Shown: one piece after another, positions 2,778 to 10,489 of the stretch
Position numbering within the stretch: position 1 is the first letter of the stretch
Layout: each line of letters opens with the position of its first letter
Notes under the pieces: generated by a model
What the model was told of the DNA's origin: nothing
The model's database searches: none
What the model saw: only the letters and a program-made list of their open reading frames with translations
Program-made: the position numbers and the translations under genes
Virus genome (UHGV): UHGV-0102870
Source of the DNA: a virus
Direction: 5' to 3' (one strand)
Length of the DNA stretch: 12,140 nt

Positions 2778-4057
2778 GTGCCACCCCCTGCGACAATCGC
2801 CTTAATTTCTGCTTCGGTGACCGTCTTCAGTACGCCCCGGTTTATCATTTCCCTGATAGCAACTTCTTCCGTCAGGATTGAACCCGTTACCAGCGTATTA
2901 AATCCGGTGGCGTACTGGCTAAACCGGTTAGCTTCGTCAGCCTCATTAATACTGTCGATTGTCGGGTATTCGTAGGTAAGGCTTTCCGTTATGGCGAGTT
3001 TATCCAGCGTGAACTGGTCGGCGAAATCCTGCATTGGACGAAGCCGGGACTCCTGAAGTCCGTTAATCGTCTCGTAATAGGATTTATTGTCTTCCTCTCC
3101 GCTGCTGAACCCGCTGGCAGACTCACCAAACAGAACCGTTATGGGCCTGTCCAGAGCACCGGCCAGTACAATCGCCATTTTGCTGATCACATCCGACAGT
3201 CCGGTAAATTGCGCGTTTTTCTGCTCATAGCGCCCTTGAGATGTTGTATCACCAGCGTCAATTAGCAGCAGCCCGGTTGAGGATTTAGTTTCCTTCATCA
3301 CCCTGGCGTATTCGCGCACCTGCCCTTCCTGACCCGCTGCGATCTGGTTATTCATGCCGGGGATAAACAGCACATCGACGTTTGCCTCCTGTATGGTGTC
3401 TCCGGTGCTGAGGATTGCTGTGTCGAAGGTTTTGATATGCTCATAGGGCGCCTGAAGGTCTGACGTGCCAAACTTTGCGCGATCCTTAATGCTGTGATTG
3501 CCCAGCTTTGTCCGGCAGCAGCGGGAATGATGAAACCTGAGTTGCTTCGTCCCGACATCAAGTTGATACGTCAGCGGCTCACCAAAACAGTCCGAACGTA
3601 TGTCGGTGATGACATTACTGTCCGGCGTGTACTCCCCTTTACGGAACACCAGGAATTTAACGATATCTTCGCTCTGCAAATTGAGCGGCAAGGCTATCTG
3701 GTCATCAGCACAATCCGTGATAGCCACGATTAGCGAGTCACCCAACAGAGAGGCCCATCCCAGCGCGCTGTGAAAGACTGCGTTTAATTTCAGTTCTTTT
3801 TCAGCGTCAGCGATGCGTTTGGTTATGGAGCTATCGACGTCGCCCGAAAATTTACGGGGCAACTTCAGCATGTCGTCGGCGGTTTTGTTGATGTACTTTT
3901 TCACCACCCACGATTTTTTATACATCGCGAGAAGTTCTTTATCCGGCACATCTGGCCTTGTGCTGCTGTACCGTACCGCTCCGATCTTCTCGCCGAGCGA
4001 GGTCATTAAGCTAACCAGGCCATCATTCAGACGACCAACGATATTTTTTCTCGTCAT
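2768..4057 (-). CDS. Portal protein, 429 aa
   Basis: ATG at 4057-4055 overlapping the TerL stop (TAATG); size and position directly after the large terminase; acidic, helix-rich sequence recalled as DUF1073-type portal. Confidence 0.7.
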   Translation of the reverse strand: MTRKNIVGRLNDGLVSLMTSLGEKIGAVRYSSTRPDVPDKELLAMYKKSWVVKKYINKTADDMLKLPRKFSGDVDSSITKRIADAEKELKLNAVFHSALGWASLLGDSLIVAITDCADDQIALPLNLQSEDIVKFLVFRKGEYTPDSNVITDIRSDCFGEPLTYQLDVGTKQLRFHHSRCCRTKLGNHSIKDRAKFGTSDLQAPYEHIKTFDTAILSTGDTIQEANVDVLFIPGMNNQIAAGQEGQVREYARVMKETKSSTGLLLIDAGDTTSQGRYEQKNAQFTGLSDVISKMAIVLAGALDRPITVLFGESASGFSSGEEDNKSYYETINGLQESRLRPMQDFADQFTLDKLAITESLTYEYPTIDSINEADEANRFSQYATGFNTLVTGSILTEEVAIREMINRGVLKTVTEAEIKAIVAGGGTWT

Positions 4058-5475
4058 TACATGATGTCCAGTGGGCTGAGTGTTTTTCTCTGATACAAAT
4101 CGCGTAACCCCTGCGTCATTGCATCGACAACGTCATCGTTCGCGCCAACAGGGAACGTGGTAATTTCCTCAACCGTCTCGGTGATCCACGGAGCGATGTC
4201 TTTATGGGGAAGGAAAACGTTACCTGCTTCCCATACAGCGGTGATCGCATGCGCCCGGGCGACTTTGCTGCCGTCCGGTTCAACGGGAACGAGTCCTGCT
4301 ACGGTGCTTTTCAGTGAATCAATAACCGCCGGGCCGTTGGCTTTATCCTCCACCAGCTTGCGCAGGCCTTTGGGGTATTCGTCGGCCATGCGTTTAACGG
4401 CTTTGAGTGTTGCGGTAAAGCTCATGCGCGCGCGCACCTGGTGAAGCAGATAAGCATTGGCGCCTTTTTTCCCCCATACCTGCCCGACAACGTAGTCGGT
4501 GCCCTCGCTGTCTTTGAAGGTCATATCCCAGCTATGGACGACAATATCGAAGTTGGTCGGCAAGTCTTTCGGGAGGTAATACTTGATCCACTCGTCTTTG
4601 AAGATTGAGCCGCCGGCCTGTTTTGGTGACTGCTGATACATCGCAGACCAGAAGTAATCCCCGAGAATGGTTTTGGTTTCGAGCAGCTTTTCTTTCGGGT
4701 GCAGTTCAGGCACCAGCGCTTCACCCTGCTCGTTGATTGCAGGGAACGCCAGCACCTTAGCGCGCGGCGTGATTTCCACCACACGCCCGGATAAATCATC
4801 TGTCGCCCAGCGGGTCGCCATGATGATTTCGCCGCTGTTTTTCGACAGACGCGTTTTAAACGTGGAAACGTACCAGTTCCAGATAGATTTTTTGGTCGTC
4901 GGGCTGAGTGCTTCTTTGGCGTTTTTTATCGGGTCATCGATGATACCGAGATCGATTTTCTTACCTGTTAACGGGCCGCCTACGCCCGCACAGACATACG
5001 TTCCCTTATGGTTGGCTATACCGAATTCGTCAGTGTTACGCTTTACGGCCACACCATCAGCCGGCTTATTTCCCAACCAGGCACCCGGAAATATGTTGCG
5101 GTATTCCGGCGTGGACATAATGCGCTGAACATCGGCGTTCATGTCCCCGGCAAGGTCAGCGGAGTACGACAAAGCGCCCACGCGCATTTCAGGATATTTT
5201 CCGAAGAAATACGCTGGCAGGTAACGCGAAACGATATCCGATTTACCATGCTGCGGCGGCGCACCGAGAATCAGTATCGGGCGCAGCCCGTTCATCATAT
5301 CCAGCAGGAACTGATCCAGAGCGTCGCAGACCGTCTGAGAGAACTTGCTGGTGATGTATTCGGGATTAATGTACTGAATGAAGTCGTGGAGGCTTGCCCG
5401 CGCATTGCGTCGTTTGAGTAACTCGGCCGCTGCTTCCTGCTTACTTACCAGCGATAATTGCGGCGAGCTGCTCAT
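4057..5475 (-). CDS. Terminase large subunit, 472 aa
   Basis: Walker A-like LGAPPQHGKS, Walker B-like IDLGIIDDP, and C-terminal nuclease-domain acidic motifs (HSWDMTF, GANDDVVDA); overlaps the 3' end of the small-subunit gene. Confidence 0.9.
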   Translation of the reverse strand: MSSSPQLSLVSKQEAAAELLKRRNARASLHDFIQYINPEYITSKFSQTVCDALDQFLLDMMNGLRPILILGAPPQHGKSDIVSRYLPAYFFGKYPEMRVGALSYSADLAGDMNADVQRIMSTPEYRNIFPGAWLGNKPADGVAVKRNTDEFGIANHKGTYVCAGVGGPLTGKKIDLGIIDDPIKNAKEALSPTTKKSIWNWYVSTFKTRLSKNSGEIIMATRWATDDLSGRVVEITPRAKVLAFPAINEQGEALVPELHPKEKLLETKTILGDYFWSAMYQQSPKQAGGSIFKDEWIKYYLPKDLPTNFDIVVHSWDMTFKDSEGTDYVVGQVWGKKGANAYLLHQVRARMSFTATLKAVKRMADEYPKGLRKLVEDKANGPAVIDSLKSTVAGLVPVEPDGSKVARAHAITAVWEAGNVFLPHKDIAPWITETVEEITTFPVGANDDVVDAMTQGLRDLYQRKTLSPLDIM

Positions 5476-5920
5476 CAGTCAGATCCTCCGCGCTTACTGT
5501 GTGATTATGCTGTATGGGCTCACCATTCGGGCCTGAATGTTCAAGCTTCTGCTTGTTGCTATATGCCTCGCCAACTTCTTTCGCGGCCTGTTCGAGGAGT
5601 TGGGCCGTCATACCGATATTTTTCATATTCTCAGCGGTCATCGACATCCTTTGCAGGACACGCAGCCGATAGGCTTTATTGGCGATCGGGATATCGGAAA
5701 TTTCATTCTGGAAGCGTTCGCGAGTTGCGTTGAAAAGTTCGACCCACTTTTTTGCGAGCGTCTTACCGCTGGCCTTCGTGGGGTCGTGAGATTCAGCCTG
5801 CTGGCGGGTGATCTTGATCCCGAATTCTTTTTGGACAGCCTCGACCACCTGCGATGGCGTGTCATAGCACGCAAGCGACTGAATGATGAAGGCTTTCACA
5901 TCAGGTTTTAATGCAGCCAT
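5441..5920 (-). CDS. Putative terminase small subunit (DUF2280-like), 159 aa
   Basis: ATG at 5920-5918 with GGTGA upstream; small protein immediately upstream of and overlapping TerL; N-terminal region looks like a DNA-binding domain. Assignment mainly positional. Confidence 0.6.
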   Translation of the reverse strand: MAALKPDVKAFIIQSLACYDTPSQVVEAVQKEFGIKITRQQAESHDPTKASGKTLAKKWVELFNATRERFQNEISDIPIANKAYRLRVLQRMSMTAENMKNIGMTAQLLEQAAKEVGEAYSNKQKLEHSGPNGEPIQHNHTVSAEDLTDEQLAAIIAGK

Positions 5921-5951: not shown

Positions 5952-6584
5952 TTAAGCCAGTTTCAGCATGCACGTCCCGCACGCTCTGGCGATGTTAAGT
6001 TTTGCCACCTCTGCAGGTTGATTTGCTGCGTCCACCAGCTCTTGCACGTCGGCACTCGCTCCGTATCGCCGAACCACGCCAACGAACTCTTCAACGTCGT
6101 GGCCGCGTAGGTATAGCTTTGGCAATCCGGAATCGCGGTAGAACTTCGGGGAGCCGAATTCATCGGTCTCCTGCGCTATGTGGTAAAGCTCATGCTCTAC
6201 CAGCGCGCAGAATTCCAGGTCAGAGCATTGCAGGCAGAAGTCACCGGCCAGCGTGATAATGAAGTCCGGTTTATGTCCGAACCACTCATGCATCTGCTGT
6301 TCCATCCGGGCTTTTTGCCATCCACCAGCACGCATCATTACCTCTTCGGCCTGACCGAGAACGGCTCGCCCTTTTTTGGTGAATGCGGTTGCCGCCCACA
6401 AGAACGCTATATCAGCATCAGCGAGGTGTGCGTGGTCAGGGTTATGCAGATGACCGGAATCGGCGATGATTTGCTCCTGCACCCATTGCCATACACCATC
6501 AGCAGGAGCTAACCGAATGTACGGAGCGAACTCTCCGACGAATGCGGATGATGGCAGCGGGCGGAGATCATCTTCATTCGCCAT
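5952..6584 (-). CDS. HExxH-motif protein, putative phage metallopeptidase-like, about 210 aa
   Basis: Start taken at the internal ATG (6584-6582, MANEDDLRPL...) with AGGAAG 6 nt upstream; the upstream ATG at 6611 abuts the terminator hairpin and lacks an SD. Contains HELYH (HExxH) in VEHELYHIAQETDEFG. Confidence 0.55.
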   Translation of the reverse strand: MANEDDLRPLPSSAFVGEFAPYIRLAPADGVWQWVQEQIIADSGHLHNPDHAHLADADIAFLWAATAFTKKGRAVLGQAEEVMMRAGGWQKARMEQQMHEWFGHKPDFIITLAGDFCLQCSDLEFCALVEHELYHIAQETDEFGSPKFYRDSGLPKLYLRGHDVEEFVGVVRRYGASADVQELVDAANQPAEVAKLNIARACGTCMLKLA

Positions 6585-6610
6585 GGTTATCTTCCTGAGG
6601 TTTGGCTCCA

Positions 6611-6638
6611 TTAAAAAAGCCCCGCATTAGCGAGGCTT
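6611..6638 (-). terminator. Rho-independent terminator downstream of the small AT-rich ORF
   Basis: On the minus strand: 9-bp stem with one mismatch (AAGCCTCGC / GCGGGGCTT), 4-nt loop, then a run of six U followed by AA and two more U; lies 20 nt past the stop of the 6659-6955 ORF. Confidence 0.55.
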
Positions 6639-6658
6639 AAGACACTGATGAACATTAG

Positions 6659-6955
6659 TTACTTCAACTTAGCGAGATAGCTGATAACCATATCCAGGCT
6701 TACACGATCCTGTCCATCTGAGTACCAAGTATTAGGGGCTGGCTGATTGGCTTTGTACAGGGCATCAATGTTTAGGTTGATGTCAGTCACTTTAAAATCT
6801 CGATCATCAGGGTCAAGCTTTGATGAAATGATCTGACAGGAGCCTTCAGGTACTTTTTTGTGGTAACCAAGCTCATGGTTTTTACAGTAAATCTCGTACT
6901 TGATGGTAGACCCATCGTCCGTTTTCAAAATGAAAGAGTGAATTAAGTGCTTCAT
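6659..6955 (-). CDS. Hypothetical small protein, about 98 aa, AT-rich moron-like gene
   Basis: ATG at 6955-6953 (MKHLIHSF...) with a G-rich SD-like stretch 6 nt upstream; visibly lower G+C and different codon usage than the flanking phage genes; flanked by a candidate promoter and a terminator. No recognisable family. Confidence 0.5.
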   Translation of the reverse strand: MKHLIHSFILKTDDGSTIKYEIYCKNHELGYHKKVPEGSCQIISSKLDPDDRDFKVTDINLNIDALYKANQPAPNTWYSDGQDRVSLDMVISYLAKLK

Positions 6956-6992
6956 GAAAACCCCCACTATTAGTGTGAGTTATCACTTTAGC

Positions 6993-7001
6993 ATTATCAC
7001 A
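6993..7001 (-). promoter_or_regulatory. Candidate extended -10 promoter (TGTGATAAT) for the 6659-6955 ORF
   Basis: Minus-strand TGnGATAAT about 40 nt upstream of the ORF start; no good -35. Sits within two direct TTATCAC repeats (plus 6980-6986 and 6994-7000), next to an imperfect palindrome at 7001-7019. Confidence 0.3.
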
Positions 7002-7037
7002 GGCACTCAGTGAATGCCTGCTGTAATGCCTGGCTAT

Positions 7038-7382
7038 TTATCTCAGGAAGAGGTTGGCTGCATACTCGCCGTCAACGAAGACATCACATTCCTTTGCGTC
7101 ACGGGAAAACTTACAGCGGGCCATAACTTTTTTACCCTTATAGTCGCCGTTGTATACGTTCGTGTAGCTTTGGGCGAAAGCGGCCGAAAGACTTTTATCC
7201 TGGTTAAGGAATGAATCATCAACAACCAGGACATCATTAACCCACAACTTCAGTATTCCGTTTGGCATATTGGCACTAATGAGCATCTGCTCTCCATTGG
7301 GAGAGCGATAAGGTTGCTGTGCAGAATAGTTAGTGCATCCTGCAAGCAGGAGCGCAGAAAGCAAAACGGTAATACGCTTCAT
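7038..7382 (-). CDS. Putative lipoprotein (moron-like), about 114 aa
   Basis: N-terminus MKRITVLLSALLLAGC: basic n-region, hydrophobic core, lipobox L-A-G-C. AGGTGA SD 10 nt before the ATG at 7382; an in-frame ATG at 7388 is too close to the SD. Confidence 0.7.
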   Translation of the reverse strand: MKRITVLLSALLLAGCTNYSAQQPYRSPNGEQMLISANMPNGILKLWVNDVLVVDDSFLNQDKSLSAAFAQSYTNVYNGDYKGKKVMARCKFSRDAKECDVFVDGEYAANLFLR

Positions 7383-7498
7383 GGACATTCATTCACCTAA
7401 GTTAAATTATTGATTGATATGGTTTTAATATCACTAAAAATTAAACTATCAGCGCCTGGTTGTACACATGAAAATTGTTGTTATTTGAAGCTTAGCAA

Positions 7499-7969
7499 TC
7501 ATCTAATGCACTGCTCACGCACATACGCTTGCAGGCCTGTCAGTTGGCTGGTGATGGTTTCGATTCGCTCTCTGAGGGTGAAATAATCCCGTTCAGCGGC
7601 GTCAGTAAGTCGGGGGCCGGTTGCATCATCCAGGCCGGTGGCGCTGGCCGTTCCGTTCGCGGGACAGGTTGCGTTGAGCTGCAACCGACGTTTGCCAGCA
7701 GCAACATCACGCTCAAGCTGATCGATAGTGGCTTTGGCATCAGCCAGTTCTCCGGTGTATTTGGCATCCAGTGCAGCGACATCACGCTGGCGGGTCTGCA
7801 TGTCTTTAATGGTGGCGGTCGCCAGGAGGAGTTTCTCAGTGGCCTTATCGCGCTGGTCTCTGTAAGTGATGGCGTTGTCGCGGTAGTGGTTCACGAAGAA
7901 AGCCAGTGCGCCGATTAACGCCAGCACCAGCAACTGCAGCCAGTAACGCTTAACCAGTGCGCTAATCAT
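7499..7969 (-). CDS. Rz: i-spanin Rz, 156 aa
   Basis: N-terminal TM segment then coiled coil; clear similarity to lambda Rz as I recall it ([62 protein letters not shown]); start overlaps the endolysin stop. Confidence 0.9.
7540..7740 (-). CDS. Rz1: o-spanin Rz1 lipoprotein, embedded in the +1 frame of Rz, about 66 aa
   Basis: ORF lies entirely inside Rz in another frame; [20 protein letters not shown] signal with lipobox Cys; proline-rich mature part [24 protein letters not shown] closely matches lambda Rz1 ([25 protein letters not shown]) from memory. Start could instead be the ATG at 7707. Confidence 0.8.
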
Positions 7970-8406
7970 GACAGGAACAGAGCTCGCTCTGCCTCCCGCC
8001 GACGTGTCAGCCCATTCAGCACCTTCCCACCAGCTTTATTCCAGCGCAGGAACTCATCGGCTGCACCAGCGTAATCTCCGGCGTTGAGTTTTCGCAGGAG
8101 AGTCGATGTCGACAATGACCGCGCACCGAGGTTATACGTGAACGACACCAGGGCATCGAATTGCCCCTGAGTCAGGCCAACTTTAACCAGTCGTGACACG
8201 TCACTTTCGTAACTGACCATTCCTGTCTTCAGCAGGCGTTCTGCCGTTTCCTGCTTAATTGTCATCCCGGCACGGATTGGTTTCCCGTCGACGGGCTGAG
8301 TCCAGCCATAACCGATCGTCCAAACGCCGACGCTGTCCTGATAGGCAGTGAGCTTGCAACCTTCGAACTCTTTGATCAGGGCAATGCCTTTATCACTGGT
8401 TTGCAT
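7966..8406 (-). CDS. Endolysin, phage lysozyme (T4 lysozyme / GH24 type, P22 gp19-like), 146 aa
   Basis: N-terminal catalytic region [28 protein letters not shown] and C-terminal [12 protein letters not shown] match the P22 gp19 lysozyme family as I recall it; no N-terminal SAR/TM segment; overlaps the holin stop. Confidence 0.92.
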
Positions 8407-8710
8407 TCTTCATCCCCGTCAGTCGTTCCCAGAAGTACGTCAGTGCCACGGAGCCCATCGCCCCGCTGATACCAGACGTAACCAGAATCATGTAAAGGCT
8501 CAGCCCACTTTCAACGCTGATCAGTCCACCAATGAGACCGGTAAAGCCGGACACTGCAATTTGTGCCAGCGCGTTGATCCAGCTCCAGGTGGCTTTGTTC
8601 TGCTTAACGTCAATAAGGTATCGGACCAAGCCGCCCCAGCATGACAGAGCAAGGACAATCAGCCATGACACTCCGGCAATGCTTTCTTTATCTTGCATAC
8701 GTTTAGCCAT
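8393..8710 (-). CDS. Holin (three predicted TM segments, class I-like), about 105 aa
   Basis: ATG at 8710-8708 with a strong SD (GGAGGT) just upstream; three hydrophobic segments and a short charged C-terminus; directly upstream of the endolysin. The annotated ORF extension to 8824 uses GTG inside the terminator hairpin and is rejected. Confidence 0.75.
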   Translation of the reverse strand: MAKRMQDKESIAGVSWLIVLALSCWGGLVRYLIDVKQNKATWSWINALAQIAVSGFTGLIGGLISVESGLSLYMILVTSGISGAMGSVALTYFWERLTGMKNANQ

Positions 8711-8768
8711 ATCACCTCCGAAAGAACGGGGTGCTGTTTGTAGTAAGGGATCAGGCCCTCGGGACGAT

Positions 8769-9161
8769 TTAACAAGAAGGCATGTCGATGATGATTCCCG
8801 TGAGCCTGAAAACAAAAAAGCCACCCTTAGGTGGCTTGTGAGTGTACGAAGTCCGGATTCCTTTCTTCGCTTTTAATAGAGCGTTATCTTCTTTCAGGCT
8901 ATCTACTTGGTCTCGCAACCTTTCAAGTTCTTTCTCGGCTCTGTCACGGTCACGCTGAAGACCTTTTATCACTTCGCCTTGGGACGCCTGTACTTCTTTG
9001 AGAATCTGGACGTTAGCTTCGGACTCATCGACAGTGTCGATAATCCTAACAGCAAAAAACGATACGATAGCCATAAGCAGACCAACCATCGTAGTAAGAA
9101 TCCAGACCTTCACACCGGAAGCAGAATTTTCAGAGGCTTCTATAAGAAATTCCTTATGCAT
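8769..9161 (-). CDS. Hypothetical membrane-anchored coiled-coil protein, about 130 aa; possibly a gene remnant
   Basis: ATG at 9161-9159 (MHKEFLIEAS...), weak SD; one N-terminal TM segment (WILTTMVGLLMAIVSFFAV) then heptad-like charged region (RDRDRAEKELERLRDQVDSLKEDNALLKAKKG). The last ~25 codons are encoded by the terminator hairpin and U-tract (KPPKGGFFVF), so the 3' end is doubtful. Confidence 0.4.
   Translation of the reverse strand: MHKEFLIEASENSASGVKVWILTTMVGLLMAIVSFFAVRIIDTVDESEANVQILKEVQASQGEVIKGLQRDRDRAEKELERLRDQVDSLKEDNALLKAKKGIRTSYTHKPPKGGFFVFRLTGIIIDMPSC
8809..8837 (-). terminator. Strong rho-independent terminator (tR'-like) about 100 nt upstream of the holin
   Basis: Minus-strand RNA: perfect 8-bp stem AAGCCACC / GGUGGCUU with 4-nt loop, followed by UUUUUUGUUUU. 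Confidence 0.7.
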
Positions 9162-9697
9162 AGTAAAAATACCCAACGCGCGGCCGCGACGTTAGAACCG
9201 AGGGTATTTTAACTACATAAGGTTATGAAGATCTTCGAAAAAAATGAGATGGTAATCTGTTTGGTTATTTAATGAGCGAAAACAGCCAAAATCCCCATGC
9301 AGGGATGATAAAAAACGTCATTGTGTAAACGACTGCGGGCTGTAATTTATTCAAATTAAATTTCCTTAGTAGGGCTCTATGTGTCCTACAACATCCAACC
9401 TACCGAAAGACATTGATTGATACAAGAGGAAAAACACTACTTTTTATTCAAATTAGGATCGGTTTTGTATCCGATGGCGCGGCATTATACGGAGATAACC
9501 CAAGTTATCAACATGAATTGCCCTCATTTGCACGCAAAATGTGCTGTTTCTTCAAAAGAATGAACAGTTTTGATGGTGAACAGTTATCAACGCTTACGTT
9601 TAAAAAACAAACCATTAACACGCACAATGATTCACAGTTCAAAAAGTTCACATTTATGACCGCGAGATGGTACACAAGTTCAAAGAATTCACTTACT

Positions 9698-9731
9698 AAA
9701 ACAAAAAGCCCAAGGCGTTAACCTCAGGCTT
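9698..9731 (-). terminator. Candidate intrinsic terminator shortly downstream of the putative late promoter
   Basis: Minus-strand RNA: GCCUGAGG / CCUUGGGC stem (8 bp including two G-U pairs), 6-nt loop, followed by UUUUUGUUUU; about 50-80 nt downstream of the predicted start site. Confidence 0.45.
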
Positions 9732-9787
9732 GAAAACTCATTTACTGCCAGTGCATACAACAATGGCACAATATCAGATTTACACGA

Positions 9788-9816
9788 AATATATGCTATT
9801 TAGTTCATTTCTGCAA
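9788..9816 (-). promoter_or_regulatory. Candidate sigma70 late promoter (pR'-like) immediately downstream of the Q-like gene
   Basis: Minus strand: TTGCAG (-35), 17-nt spacer, TATATT (-10); predicted start near 9781. The -35 lies 9 nt past the Q stop codon, mirroring the lambda Q/pR' arrangement. Confidence 0.4.
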
Positions 9817-10489
9817 TACCTTGCTGATAATTTGCTGCCTTTTGTTGTGAACGTGATCGCGAAACATGATGTAGTGACTGTGAGTCCAGCCTCTTATACA
9901 AACTGACCATTGCATCGTAATGTTCCACGTAATTCTGAGACCAGTTTGTTTTATTAACGCCCACCAGCGCAGCCAGATCGCCATACTGATACACATCCCT
10001 CCCAGCTAACTCGTTTTTCACATCCTGCGCCGCCAGCCATATCAACTGACGCAACCGCTCGATAGTCTTTTTCGCCACCCTCTTCCCAGCCAGTTGCTGG
10101 CTGAACTGTTGCCAACCCCACTGAGTGATTTCAACCTGATAGCACCAGCGCACATTCTCGCTGTAGGTCCAGAGCAACCATGCTCTCTGATGGTCTTCCA
10201 GAGACAGGACAGCGCGGCGCCATGATGCGGTGCCGAACTCTACCGGACTCACCAGCGCGATTGACGAGCCCTTGGCGCGTGACTGACTGCCGCTCATCGG
10301 CGGGCCGTCTGGGTTAACCATGCGCTTTTTCTGCGCGTCATAGACTTTCTTCCGCCCCCGGCTGCGCGCCGTCGCGGTGAATTGAGCGTTCTCGGCGAAA
10401 GCGACCAGCTGCCCTTTCGTCGCCCCGCTGAGGTCTGCGGTCGCCACAATGAGCTGCTGACGTACGTATTCCAGTTGCTGACTGTTCAT
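9800..10489 (-). CDS. Putative late-gene antitermination protein (Q-like), 229 aa
   Basis: ATG at 10489-10487 with AGGAAG SD; position is diagnostic (after nin/RusA genes, immediately before promoter, terminator and lysis cassette). Not the lambda Q zinc-finger type; assignment is positional plus vague family recollection. Confidence 0.5.
   Translation of the reverse strand: MNSQQLEYVRQQLIVATADLSGATKGQLVAFAENAQFTATARSRGRKKVYDAQKKRMVNPDGPPMSGSQSRAKGSSIALVSPVEFGTASWRRAVLSLEDHQRAWLLWTYSENVRWCYQVEITQWGWQQFSQQLAGKRVAKKTIERLRQLIWLAAQDVKNELAGRDVYQYGDLAALVGVNKTNWSQNYVEHYDAMVSLYKRLDSQSLHHVSRSRSQQKAANYQQGIAEMN

Follow-up and report, generated by a model that had tools for sequence, protein, structure and literature searches.

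A conserved hairpin at mosaic junctions of lambdoid phages borders an AT-rich orphan gene

Introduction

When an orphan gene sits inside a phage late operon, which of the sequences around it belong to the gene and which to the operon? The question is raised by a 12,140-nucleotide stretch of the UHGV virus genome UHGV-0102870 (the whole of which we refer to as the window). All genes of the window are read on the minus strand and together make up the late part of a lambda-like prophage, which probably comes from Citrobacter. Among them is an open reading frame (ORF) at 6659–6955 for a protein of 98 amino acids (aa), preceded by a hairpin of 39 nucleotides (nt), and it is this gene and this hairpin that concern us here.

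Morons of lambdoid phages, in the concept of Hendrix and Juhala, are extra genes that carry their own promoter, active in the lysogen, and a factor-independent terminator. An earlier, sequence-only reading of the window interpreted the 98-aa gene as such a moron, and assigned to it an extended −10 promoter element, two operator-like TTATCAC repeats and an intrinsic terminator. Each of these features is present where that reading placed it. The terminator accompanies the gene. The extended −10 element and one of the repeats are instead pieces of the 39-nt hairpin, which belongs to a family with a common structure and folding strand, restricted to one region of the phage genome and situated at mosaic breakpoints. 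We consider what this hairpin may do, and what is left of the moron interpretation.

A structured hairpin ahead of the orphan gene

The hairpin comprises an outer stem (GCAUUA/UAAUGC), a 2 × 2 internal loop (CA/GA), an inner stem (GCAGGCAU/GUGCCUGU) and a terminal loop (UCACUGA). As DNA it is an imperfect dyad of 39 base pairs (bp), while the RNA folds with a predicted energy of −24.7 kcal/mol (z −5.0). The covariance model of the family finds a single copy in the window, scoring 59.9 bits (E 4e-17). Upstream, the stop codon of a lipoprotein gene is 7 nt ahead of the 40-mer that contains the hairpin (8 nt ahead of the 39-nt hairpin itself), and the hairpin seems to belong with this gene as one unit.

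An intrinsic terminator was considered as the identity of the hairpin and rejected: the stem is followed by UAAAGUG in the window and by varied non-U sequences elsewhere, with no U-tract. Rfam 15, searched over the whole window at E ≤ 1, gave no match at or near 6991–7030, and a full-text literature search by sequence and keyword, which included the papers on phage L and BTP1, found no description of the hairpin. An informal comparison by eye with boxB/nut, put RNA and the T-arm and anticodon arm of tRNA revealed no convincing match, nor did one with CRISPR I-E and I-F repeats, dif/Xer sites, and Fur and CRP boxes.

Members of the family share one plan, with a 6-bp outer stem, the 2 × 2 loop of 5′-CA and 5′-GA, an 8-bp inner stem and a terminal loop of 6–8 nt. 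The outer stem and the CA/GA loop hardly vary from copy to copy, and it is the inner stem that is swapped wholesale (CAGGCAU, CAGCCCU, GAAGCCA, AAGCUCAC, GGGCGCAU and others), and the opposite arm changes to match. In an alignment of 51 sequences, nine of the 14 pairs have changes on both sides, and the covariation score is 0.458, compared with 0.05–0.09 for slid registers and 0.20 for shuffled alignments. When only the outer arms were required, 61 distinct inner segments were recovered whose ends pair with one another at 93%, against 72% (maximum 77%) when the arms were re-dealt among them. Pairing in these segments is skewed, with G·U pairs exceeding A·C mismatches by 86 to 13; the late-gene sense strand is therefore the strand that folds, and the asymmetry argues against both a duplex-DNA operator and an antisense RNA. 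A few hairpins are hybrids whose arms do not match, the 5′ arm of type B being combined with the 3′ arm of type A, as expected from exchange inside the element.

Occurrence in phage and bacterial genomes

A search of phage genomes with positions 6550–7450 of the window matched over only about 45 bases, at 97–100% identity, in phi80, mEp390, Pectobacterium phage ZF40 and Klebsiella prophages. Exact copies of the corresponding minus-strand 40-mer, GGCATTACAGCAGGCATTCACTGAGTGCCTGTGATAATGC, are carried by 94 of 5426 complete E. coli genomes and by at least 120 IMG/VR contigs. Its surroundings are diverse, the 122 loci that carry the exact 40-mer having 68 distinct 30-mers downstream and 70 distinct 30-mers upstream. 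Diverged copies are found in phiP27, cdtI, phi458, ST64B, Fels-1, FSL SP-016, an Edwardsiella phage and an Actinobacillus phage, and others were recovered by a degenerate scan with the canonical copy left out, and from loci carrying homologues of the 98-aa protein.

In every annotated phage the hairpin follows the lysis cassette, often with one or two small genes in addition, and lies ahead of the HNH, cos and terminase genes; its orientation is invariably that of late transcription. Over whole genomes, phi80 has a single copy and one Klebsiella phage three; every copy is on the late strand in this region, with none elsewhere. The three Klebsiella copies bracket a DUF2560 gene and the next small gene. 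The copy of P22 (43 bits) lies between rha and orf80, at 40310–40348 of NC_002371.2 (1311–1349 of our locus L388), and no copy is present in the right end of lambda. Two side observations concern P22. The annotated 25-codon ‘orf25’ (40329–40406) starts inside the hairpin and is probably not a gene. About 60 nt beyond the hairpin is a terminator-like hairpin, such that the order of rha, hairpin and terminator is that of phi80.

In 135 of 210 distinct contexts the hairpin lies no more than 10 nt downstream of the end of a same-strand ORF of 60 aa or longer, compared with 18 in the opposite orientation and 3% at random positions. The next start codon preceded by a Shine–Dalgarno (SD) sequence is no more than 30 nt away in 96 contexts, and no more than 20 nt away in 39; a distance of 15 nt also occurs. 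In phi80 and eight other loci the hairpin is directly followed by a terminator and a convergent gene. Two or three copies occur together at 52 loci, never on opposite strands, with a commonest spacing of about 311 nt around DUF2560. Of 40 distinct pairs of neighbouring copies in the same phage, 37 have unlike inner stems, a divergence that would limit deletion between the repeats and suggests that what is kept is the structure, not the identity of the repeats. The 81-aa DUF2560 gene itself typically sits between two hairpins of different inner-stem type, as a one-gene cassette (for example at 2262–2612 of locus L260 and 21463–22167 of locus L265).

Model-confirmed copies were also obtained from a sample of bacterial genomes, at nine of 100 re-scored loci, all from Enterobacterales (Citrobacter, Enterobacter, Kluyvera, Leclercia, Mangrovibacter, Pantoea, Serratia and Yersinia); the loose pattern scan of bacterial contigs returned mostly chance matches and gives no taxonomic census. 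Separately, the exact enterobacterial 40-mer is found at 35844–35883 of OM284015.1, ‘Elizabethkingia phage EKP1’. A Flavobacteriia host would be surprising for a phage with this 40-mer, so the host assignment of EKP1 may deserve a check.

Hairpins at mosaic breakpoints

A prophage of E. coli KFu022 matches the window at 99–100% identity for 1.46 kb. The match begins at 8449 (lysozyme) and takes in Rz, the lipoprotein gene and the hairpin. The identity ends at position 6991, the last base of the hairpin; a different gene follows, and the 98-aa gene is absent there. In the collected loci, 81 upstream and 87 downstream clusters of flanking sequence are joined in 128 combinations. The identical type-A hairpin alone links 39 upstream clusters to 48 downstream clusters. 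Among informative pairs, the inner-stem type tracks the upstream flank in 88% and the downstream flank in 22%.

The orphan gene and its terminator

The 98-aa ORF is lower in G+C than its neighbours, as the sequence-only reading had it (0.411, compared with 0.552 for the metallopeptidase gene and 0.567 for Rz). The low-G+C island is wider than the ORF, however, and takes in the lipoprotein gene (0.462) and the spacer at 7389–7498 (0.282). Translation of the orphan gene starts at the ATG at 6955, with the SD sequence GGGGG seven bases upstream. The ORF list has a GTG at 6967 as the start, which is ruled out because every homologue begins MKHL (16 of 16 clusters).

These 16 homologue clusters were obtained from a search of 5.8 billion proteins and are 49–99% identical, nearly all 96–98 aa long, and from Citrobacter, Enterobacter and Klebsiella, the closest protein being from Citrobacter youngae. 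A C-terminal motif, NQPxPNTWYSDGQDRV, is invariant across the homologues. A profile search of 1.84 billion representatives gave only seven matches, and the family is therefore small. No match to the protein was found in Pfam, PHROGs, PADLOC, NCBIfam or a PDB sequence profile. The AlphaFold2 (AF2) model, with a predicted local distance difference test score (pLDDT) of 84, shows a four-stranded β-meander and two helices, and none of its structural neighbours is informative. Sequence, profile and structure searches thus bear out the earlier statement that the product is without a recognisable family.

At every retrievable locus the homologue lies between lysis and terminase genes, in phages that differ in their lysis cassettes and in their terminases (Terminase_4 with HNH; Sf6-type). 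About 45 nt of leader travels with the gene and is homologous in the Enterobacter and Klebsiella copies. The ORF is confirmed as a genuine, rare, conserved AT-rich cargo gene, situated where the late operon is variable. Given where it lies and that it is an orphan, we guess that its product is a host-interaction accessory protein, or an anti-phage or anti-defence one. In the Enterobacter loci (L256–L259) we noticed by eye an apparent decayed 3′ half of a type-A hairpin (CATTCGCTCACTGACAGTTTCAGATAAT), roughly 50–80 nt upstream of the homologue, with an intact type-C hairpin farther upstream. The 98-aa gene may once have moved with part of a type-A hairpin.

Downstream of the gene, the intrinsic terminator described in the sequence-only reading is well supported, with a 9-bp GC-rich stem at 6617–6638 followed by U6 (−15.6 kcal/mol, z −5.2); stem and U-tract together span 6611–6638. 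The terminator hairpin accompanies the gene in the Enterobacter and Klebsiella loci, where base changes preserve its pairing. It runs directly into UUUUUUAAUGGAG, the source of the SD sequence for the next gene, and this fusion recurs: across 2.3 Mb of related loci the late strand has 24 instances of the composite TTTTTA[AT]TGGAG and the opposite strand has none, compared with about 0.07 expected per strand by our own estimate. The composite is preceded by varied GC-rich hairpins and followed by a start codon 5–10 nt later, in 17 other contexts (L004–L266). On this pattern, the right border of the cassette is a second recurring connector, consisting of a terminator hairpin and UUUUUUAWUGGAG.

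The leader is less clear. Minimum-energy folds of all four leader types place the SD sequence in a paired position inside a hairpin, with modest z-scores (−2.5 to 0.0). In the window the anti-SD strand is CUCAC, and the equivalents in the three other types are CCUCAC/GUGGGG and GCCUCA/UGAGGC. RNAalifold over the four leaders returns just three consensus pairs. A hairpin that sequesters the SD sequence is, from these folds, a weak lead.

Taken by its sequence features, the cassette is of the moron type, made up of a leader, an orphan ORF and an intrinsic terminator of its own, within the hypervariable interval between lysis and packaging. It resembles a moron in being AT-rich, in having its own terminator, in lying between late-operon modules and in being absent from the same place in a near-identical relative. 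It differs in its left border, which is a shared connector hairpin and not control DNA specific to the gene, and in having a promoter only as a candidate. The moron architecture proposed earlier accordingly stands for the cargo and the terminator, and does not stand for the private promoter and operator.

Promoter-like and operator-like sequences at the hairpin

The extended −10 element of the sequence-only reading, TGTGATAAT (6993–7001, minus strand), is part of the 3′ arm of the shared hairpin rather than private control DNA of the 98-aa gene. Promoters of this class have a TG at −15/−14 ahead of a TATAAT-like hexamer. The element is the sole TGNKATAAT in the window, where chance alone would give 0.59 and at least one turns up in 90 of 200 shuffles. 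A promoter scan found no −35 element to accompany it and did not call the site. Owing to this chance frequency and the missing −35, the motif alone is not significant as evidence.

Could the hairpin copy nevertheless be a working extended −10 sigma-70 promoter, which in the prophage would transcribe the 98-aa gene up to its terminator, with the palindrome and the TTATCAC repeats binding a repressor? A broader form of this explanation would make the whole family a composite of stem-loop and promoter, like the PeSL elements of T4, in which the outer stem has both to pair and to spell GATAAT. Several observations fit. Across the family G32, A33, A36 and T37 are invariant, and the 3′ arm carries GATAAT, including the most critical A and T of a −10 element. 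The motif TGnGATAAT is retained in types A and B, and takes the perfect form TGTTATAAT in one Klebsiella copy and the form TGCTGTAAT in FSL SP-016; the Enterobacter and Klebsiella homologues of the gene carry a TGATAAATT motif of their own at a similar distance. Moreover, a terminator within an operon antiterminated by Q makes sense only with a Q-independent promoter upstream.

Other observations do not fit. Copies of the CTTC type, which make up many of the distinct variants, lack the TG, and so do types C and D, which read GACAAT and GATGAT. In the 39 contexts with the closest start codon, the start is too near for a leader that includes an SD sequence, and in nine loci (phi80 among them) a terminator and a convergent gene come immediately after the element. 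A −10 element also leaves unexplained why the 5′ arm and the CA loop should be no less invariant than GATAAT. We consider the promoter explanation, the main rival, possible but doubtful, and regard weak extended −10 activity of this particular copy, as read from its sequence, with the same reserve. The internal terminator in the Q-antiterminated operon does imply some Q-independent transcription from upstream, and this could equally be explained by a sigma-70-like candidate at 7406–7434 reading through a two-gene island of lipoprotein gene, hairpin, 98-aa gene and terminator. On its sequence, the candidate in the 7389–7498 spacer may be the real promoter of this AT-rich island.

The two TTATCAC repeats are direct repeats on the plus strand, at 6980–6986 and 6994–7000, 14 nt apart, and the heptamer is over-represented in the window (five copies against 1.13 expected, a level reached in one of 200 shuffles). 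The copy at 6994–7000 is inside the 3′ arm of the hairpin, and the other is in the leader. Operators of the lambda type are 17-bp pseudo-palindromes of inverted TATCAC-type half-sites, arranged in tandem sets across a promoter and specific to a single immunity type. The likeness of the repeats to the lambda operator half-site had suggested repressor control, a proposal that we reject because the repeats are direct, not inverted half-sites, and because one of them is located in a hairpin common to phages of many immunity types. No repressor gene was found in the window.

A proposed intercistronic connector and its alternatives

The explanation we favour, at a probability of roughly 0.55, is that the hairpin is an intercistronic RNA connector that doubles as a recombination joint. 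It would fold in the sense strand of the late mRNA, right behind the stop codon that ends the preceding gene, and could serve as a standard connector between cistrons, whose 3′ structure would delimit or protect the upstream message. It might also shield the downstream ribosome-binding site from its sequence context. At the DNA level, the conserved hairpin sequence would offer a short patch of homology for recombination systems, through which unrelated cargo genes could be exchanged between phages. That RNA is the active form, with a stabilising or insulating role, is what we infer from the pairing and the placement.

Several points weigh against this explanation. The covariance-model alignment was pre-filtered for pairing, and the recount that required only the outer arms corrects for this in the inner stem only. 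The strand asymmetry would also be compatible with folding of single-stranded DNA, as in attC, although no recombinase is linked to the element. The invariant A and T of GATAAT, together with the TG kept in types A and B, fit a promoter as well. If the hairpin were simply a stabiliser, its outer stem and CA/GA loop would have no need to be invariant, and their conservation makes a specific binding partner, a protein or a nuclease, likely. The link between inner-stem type and upstream flank is dominated by a few large clusters. Finally, the counts from scans of sequence collections are lower bounds, and the samples are not random.

Next to the promoter, a second alternative is that the hairpins are structure-specific recombination sites, active as folded single-stranded DNA in the manner of attC, at which a recombinase moves gene cassettes within the lysis-to-packaging region. 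Conserved outer arms, a variable inner stem, unpaired bases on both sides and strand specificity would all be expected of such a site, as would the location at the 3′ ends of small genes, the bracketing of single genes such as DUF2560 by two or three copies, and a breakpoint that coincides with the 3′ edge of the hairpin. Nevertheless, the integrases of the host phages are unrelated, the hairpin has no similarity to the R and L boxes of attC, the mismatched hybrids resemble ordinary homologous exchange within the element, and the identity of the 40-mer is sufficient for recombination of the Red/RecET type. We judge this alternative improbable. The weakest candidate, a double-stranded operator for a dimeric regulator, is suggested by the near-perfect 39-bp dyad overlapping a −10-like hexamer and is rejected, as very improbable indeed, because the inner half-sites of the different types are too unlike for any single protein to read them all and because pairing maintained through G·U matters to a folded single strand and not to duplex DNA.

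Comparison with known elements

The connector explanation invites comparison with repeated elements of bacteria and phages. REP and BIME elements are imperfect palindromes of about 35–40 nt that lie after stop codons within operons, are transcribed, and are known stabilisers of upstream mRNA; a host chromosome has hundreds of them, dispersed through its intergenic regions. The hairpin is like a REP in its conserved lower stem, variable upper part and placement just after stop codons; it differs in being phage-borne, in having one to three copies per phage confined to the lysis-to-packaging region, and in its consensus. The attC sites of integrons have R′′/L′′–L′/R′ boxes (RYYYAAC...GTTRRRY) and a linked IntI integrase. 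The likeness here is in a middle part conserved as structure over sequence, conserved outer arms, unpaired bases, strand specificity and location at the 3′ end of a cassette gene, whereas the arms of the hairpin (GCATTACAG...YGATAATGC) have no R′′/R′ consensus and the window contains no integrase gene. The intercistronic RNase III hairpins of T7 have an internal loop, lie between cistrons of a long transcript, and leave a protective 3′ stem on the upstream message. As hairpins with an internal loop between cistrons they resemble the family; the family hairpin is shorter (14 bp and a 2 × 2 loop) than typical substrates.

Closest in idea are the PeSLs (promoter-early stem-loops) of lytic T4-like phages, in which an intergenic stem-loop is repeated, with promoter-like motifs, in hyperplastic regions, where it flanks orphan ORFs and marks the crossover points of modular shuffling (PMC2839356, PMC4122927). 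The PeSLs contain a full strong sigma-70 promoter (−35, −10 and an AT-rich upstream region) beside a terminator stem-loop (PMC2839356, PMC4122927). Our hairpin is likewise repeated at the borders of orphan ORFs, in a variable region, and at recombination junctions. It differs in having neither a −35 element nor a U-tract, in having its −10-like hexamer inside the stem, and in being confined to one region of temperate lambdoid phages. The junction hairpin is not a member of the PeSL, REP/BIME or attC families.

If we extend the connector explanation to both borders of the cassette, the Enterobacterales lambdoid phages (and at least one Pasteurellaceae phage) would have a standardised connector system, in which a hairpin read by a host or phage factor and the joint of terminator and UUUUUUAWUGGAG together define exchangeable single-gene cassettes. 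This extension is speculative, and we think it rather unlikely as a whole. Were it true, the pair of connectors would be a phage counterpart of integron cassettes or of the PeSL modules of T4, and would explain how orphan accessory genes such as that for the 98-aa protein move between unrelated phages.

What does not depend on this extension is a covariation-supported, strand-specific hairpin family in the model phages P22, phi80, ST64B, Fels-1 and phiP27 and in hundreds of prophages, which marks mosaic junctions where lambdoid phages keep accessory and host-interaction genes. If the hairpin is a functional connector, it would give modular exchange in temperate phages a molecular basis that can be tested, and would provide a search handle for cargo genes and a natural part for insulating cistrons from one another. 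There is also a lesson for annotation, in that promoter-like and operator-like strings picked out from a single sequence can be pieces of a conserved structured element.

Features of the surrounding window

The features of the window are collected in Table 1, in the order of late transcription.

Table 1. Coordinates of genes and other features in the window.
Feature	Position	Strand	Basis or detail
Q antiterminator	9800–10489	−	Family searches
LydA-type holin	8393–8824	−	Family searches
Lysozyme	7966–8406	−	
Rz	7499–7969	−	G+C 0.567
Sigma-70-like promoter candidate, GTGATA-17-AATAAT	7406–7434	−	Consensus scan only
116-aa lipoprotein gene	7038–7388	−	Lipobox LLAGC; weak LPAM_1 match; G+C 0.462
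Junction hairpin	6991–7029 (39 nt); 40-mer 6991–7030	−	Covariance model and fold
Leader of the 98-aa gene	6956–6990	−	Second TTATCAC/GTGATAA, 6980–6986; anti-SD CUCAC, 6975–6979; SD GGGGG, 6961–6965
98-aa orphan gene (moron cargo)	6659–6955	−	ATG at 6955; G+C 0.411
Intrinsic terminator fused to SD of next gene	6606–6638 (stem 6617–6638; UUUUUUAAUGGAG 6606–6618)	−	
Metallopeptidase-like phage gene	5952–6611	−	G+C 0.552
DUF2280 protein	5441–5920	−	Likely small terminase
TerL	4057–5475	−	

Three further observations concern the neighbourhood. Several sigma-70-like sites, on both strands, fall in the 110-bp spacer that separates Rz from the lipoprotein gene (7389–7498, 28% G+C). A long AT-rich stretch (8830–9800, G+C 0.37–0.45) lies between the genes for Q and the holin and presumably houses the late promoter and its terminator; at 8769–9176 there is an ORF of 135 aa with a TTG start and a membrane-like N-terminus. 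Finally, the 219-aa HExxH protein encoded at 5952–6611 matches the Pfam family PhageMetallopep with an E of 3e-43, yet its PHROG (513) is labelled ‘transposase’, and its counterpart in ZF40, gp39, is also annotated as a transposase. The ‘transposase’ label on this protein is probably a propagated misannotation.

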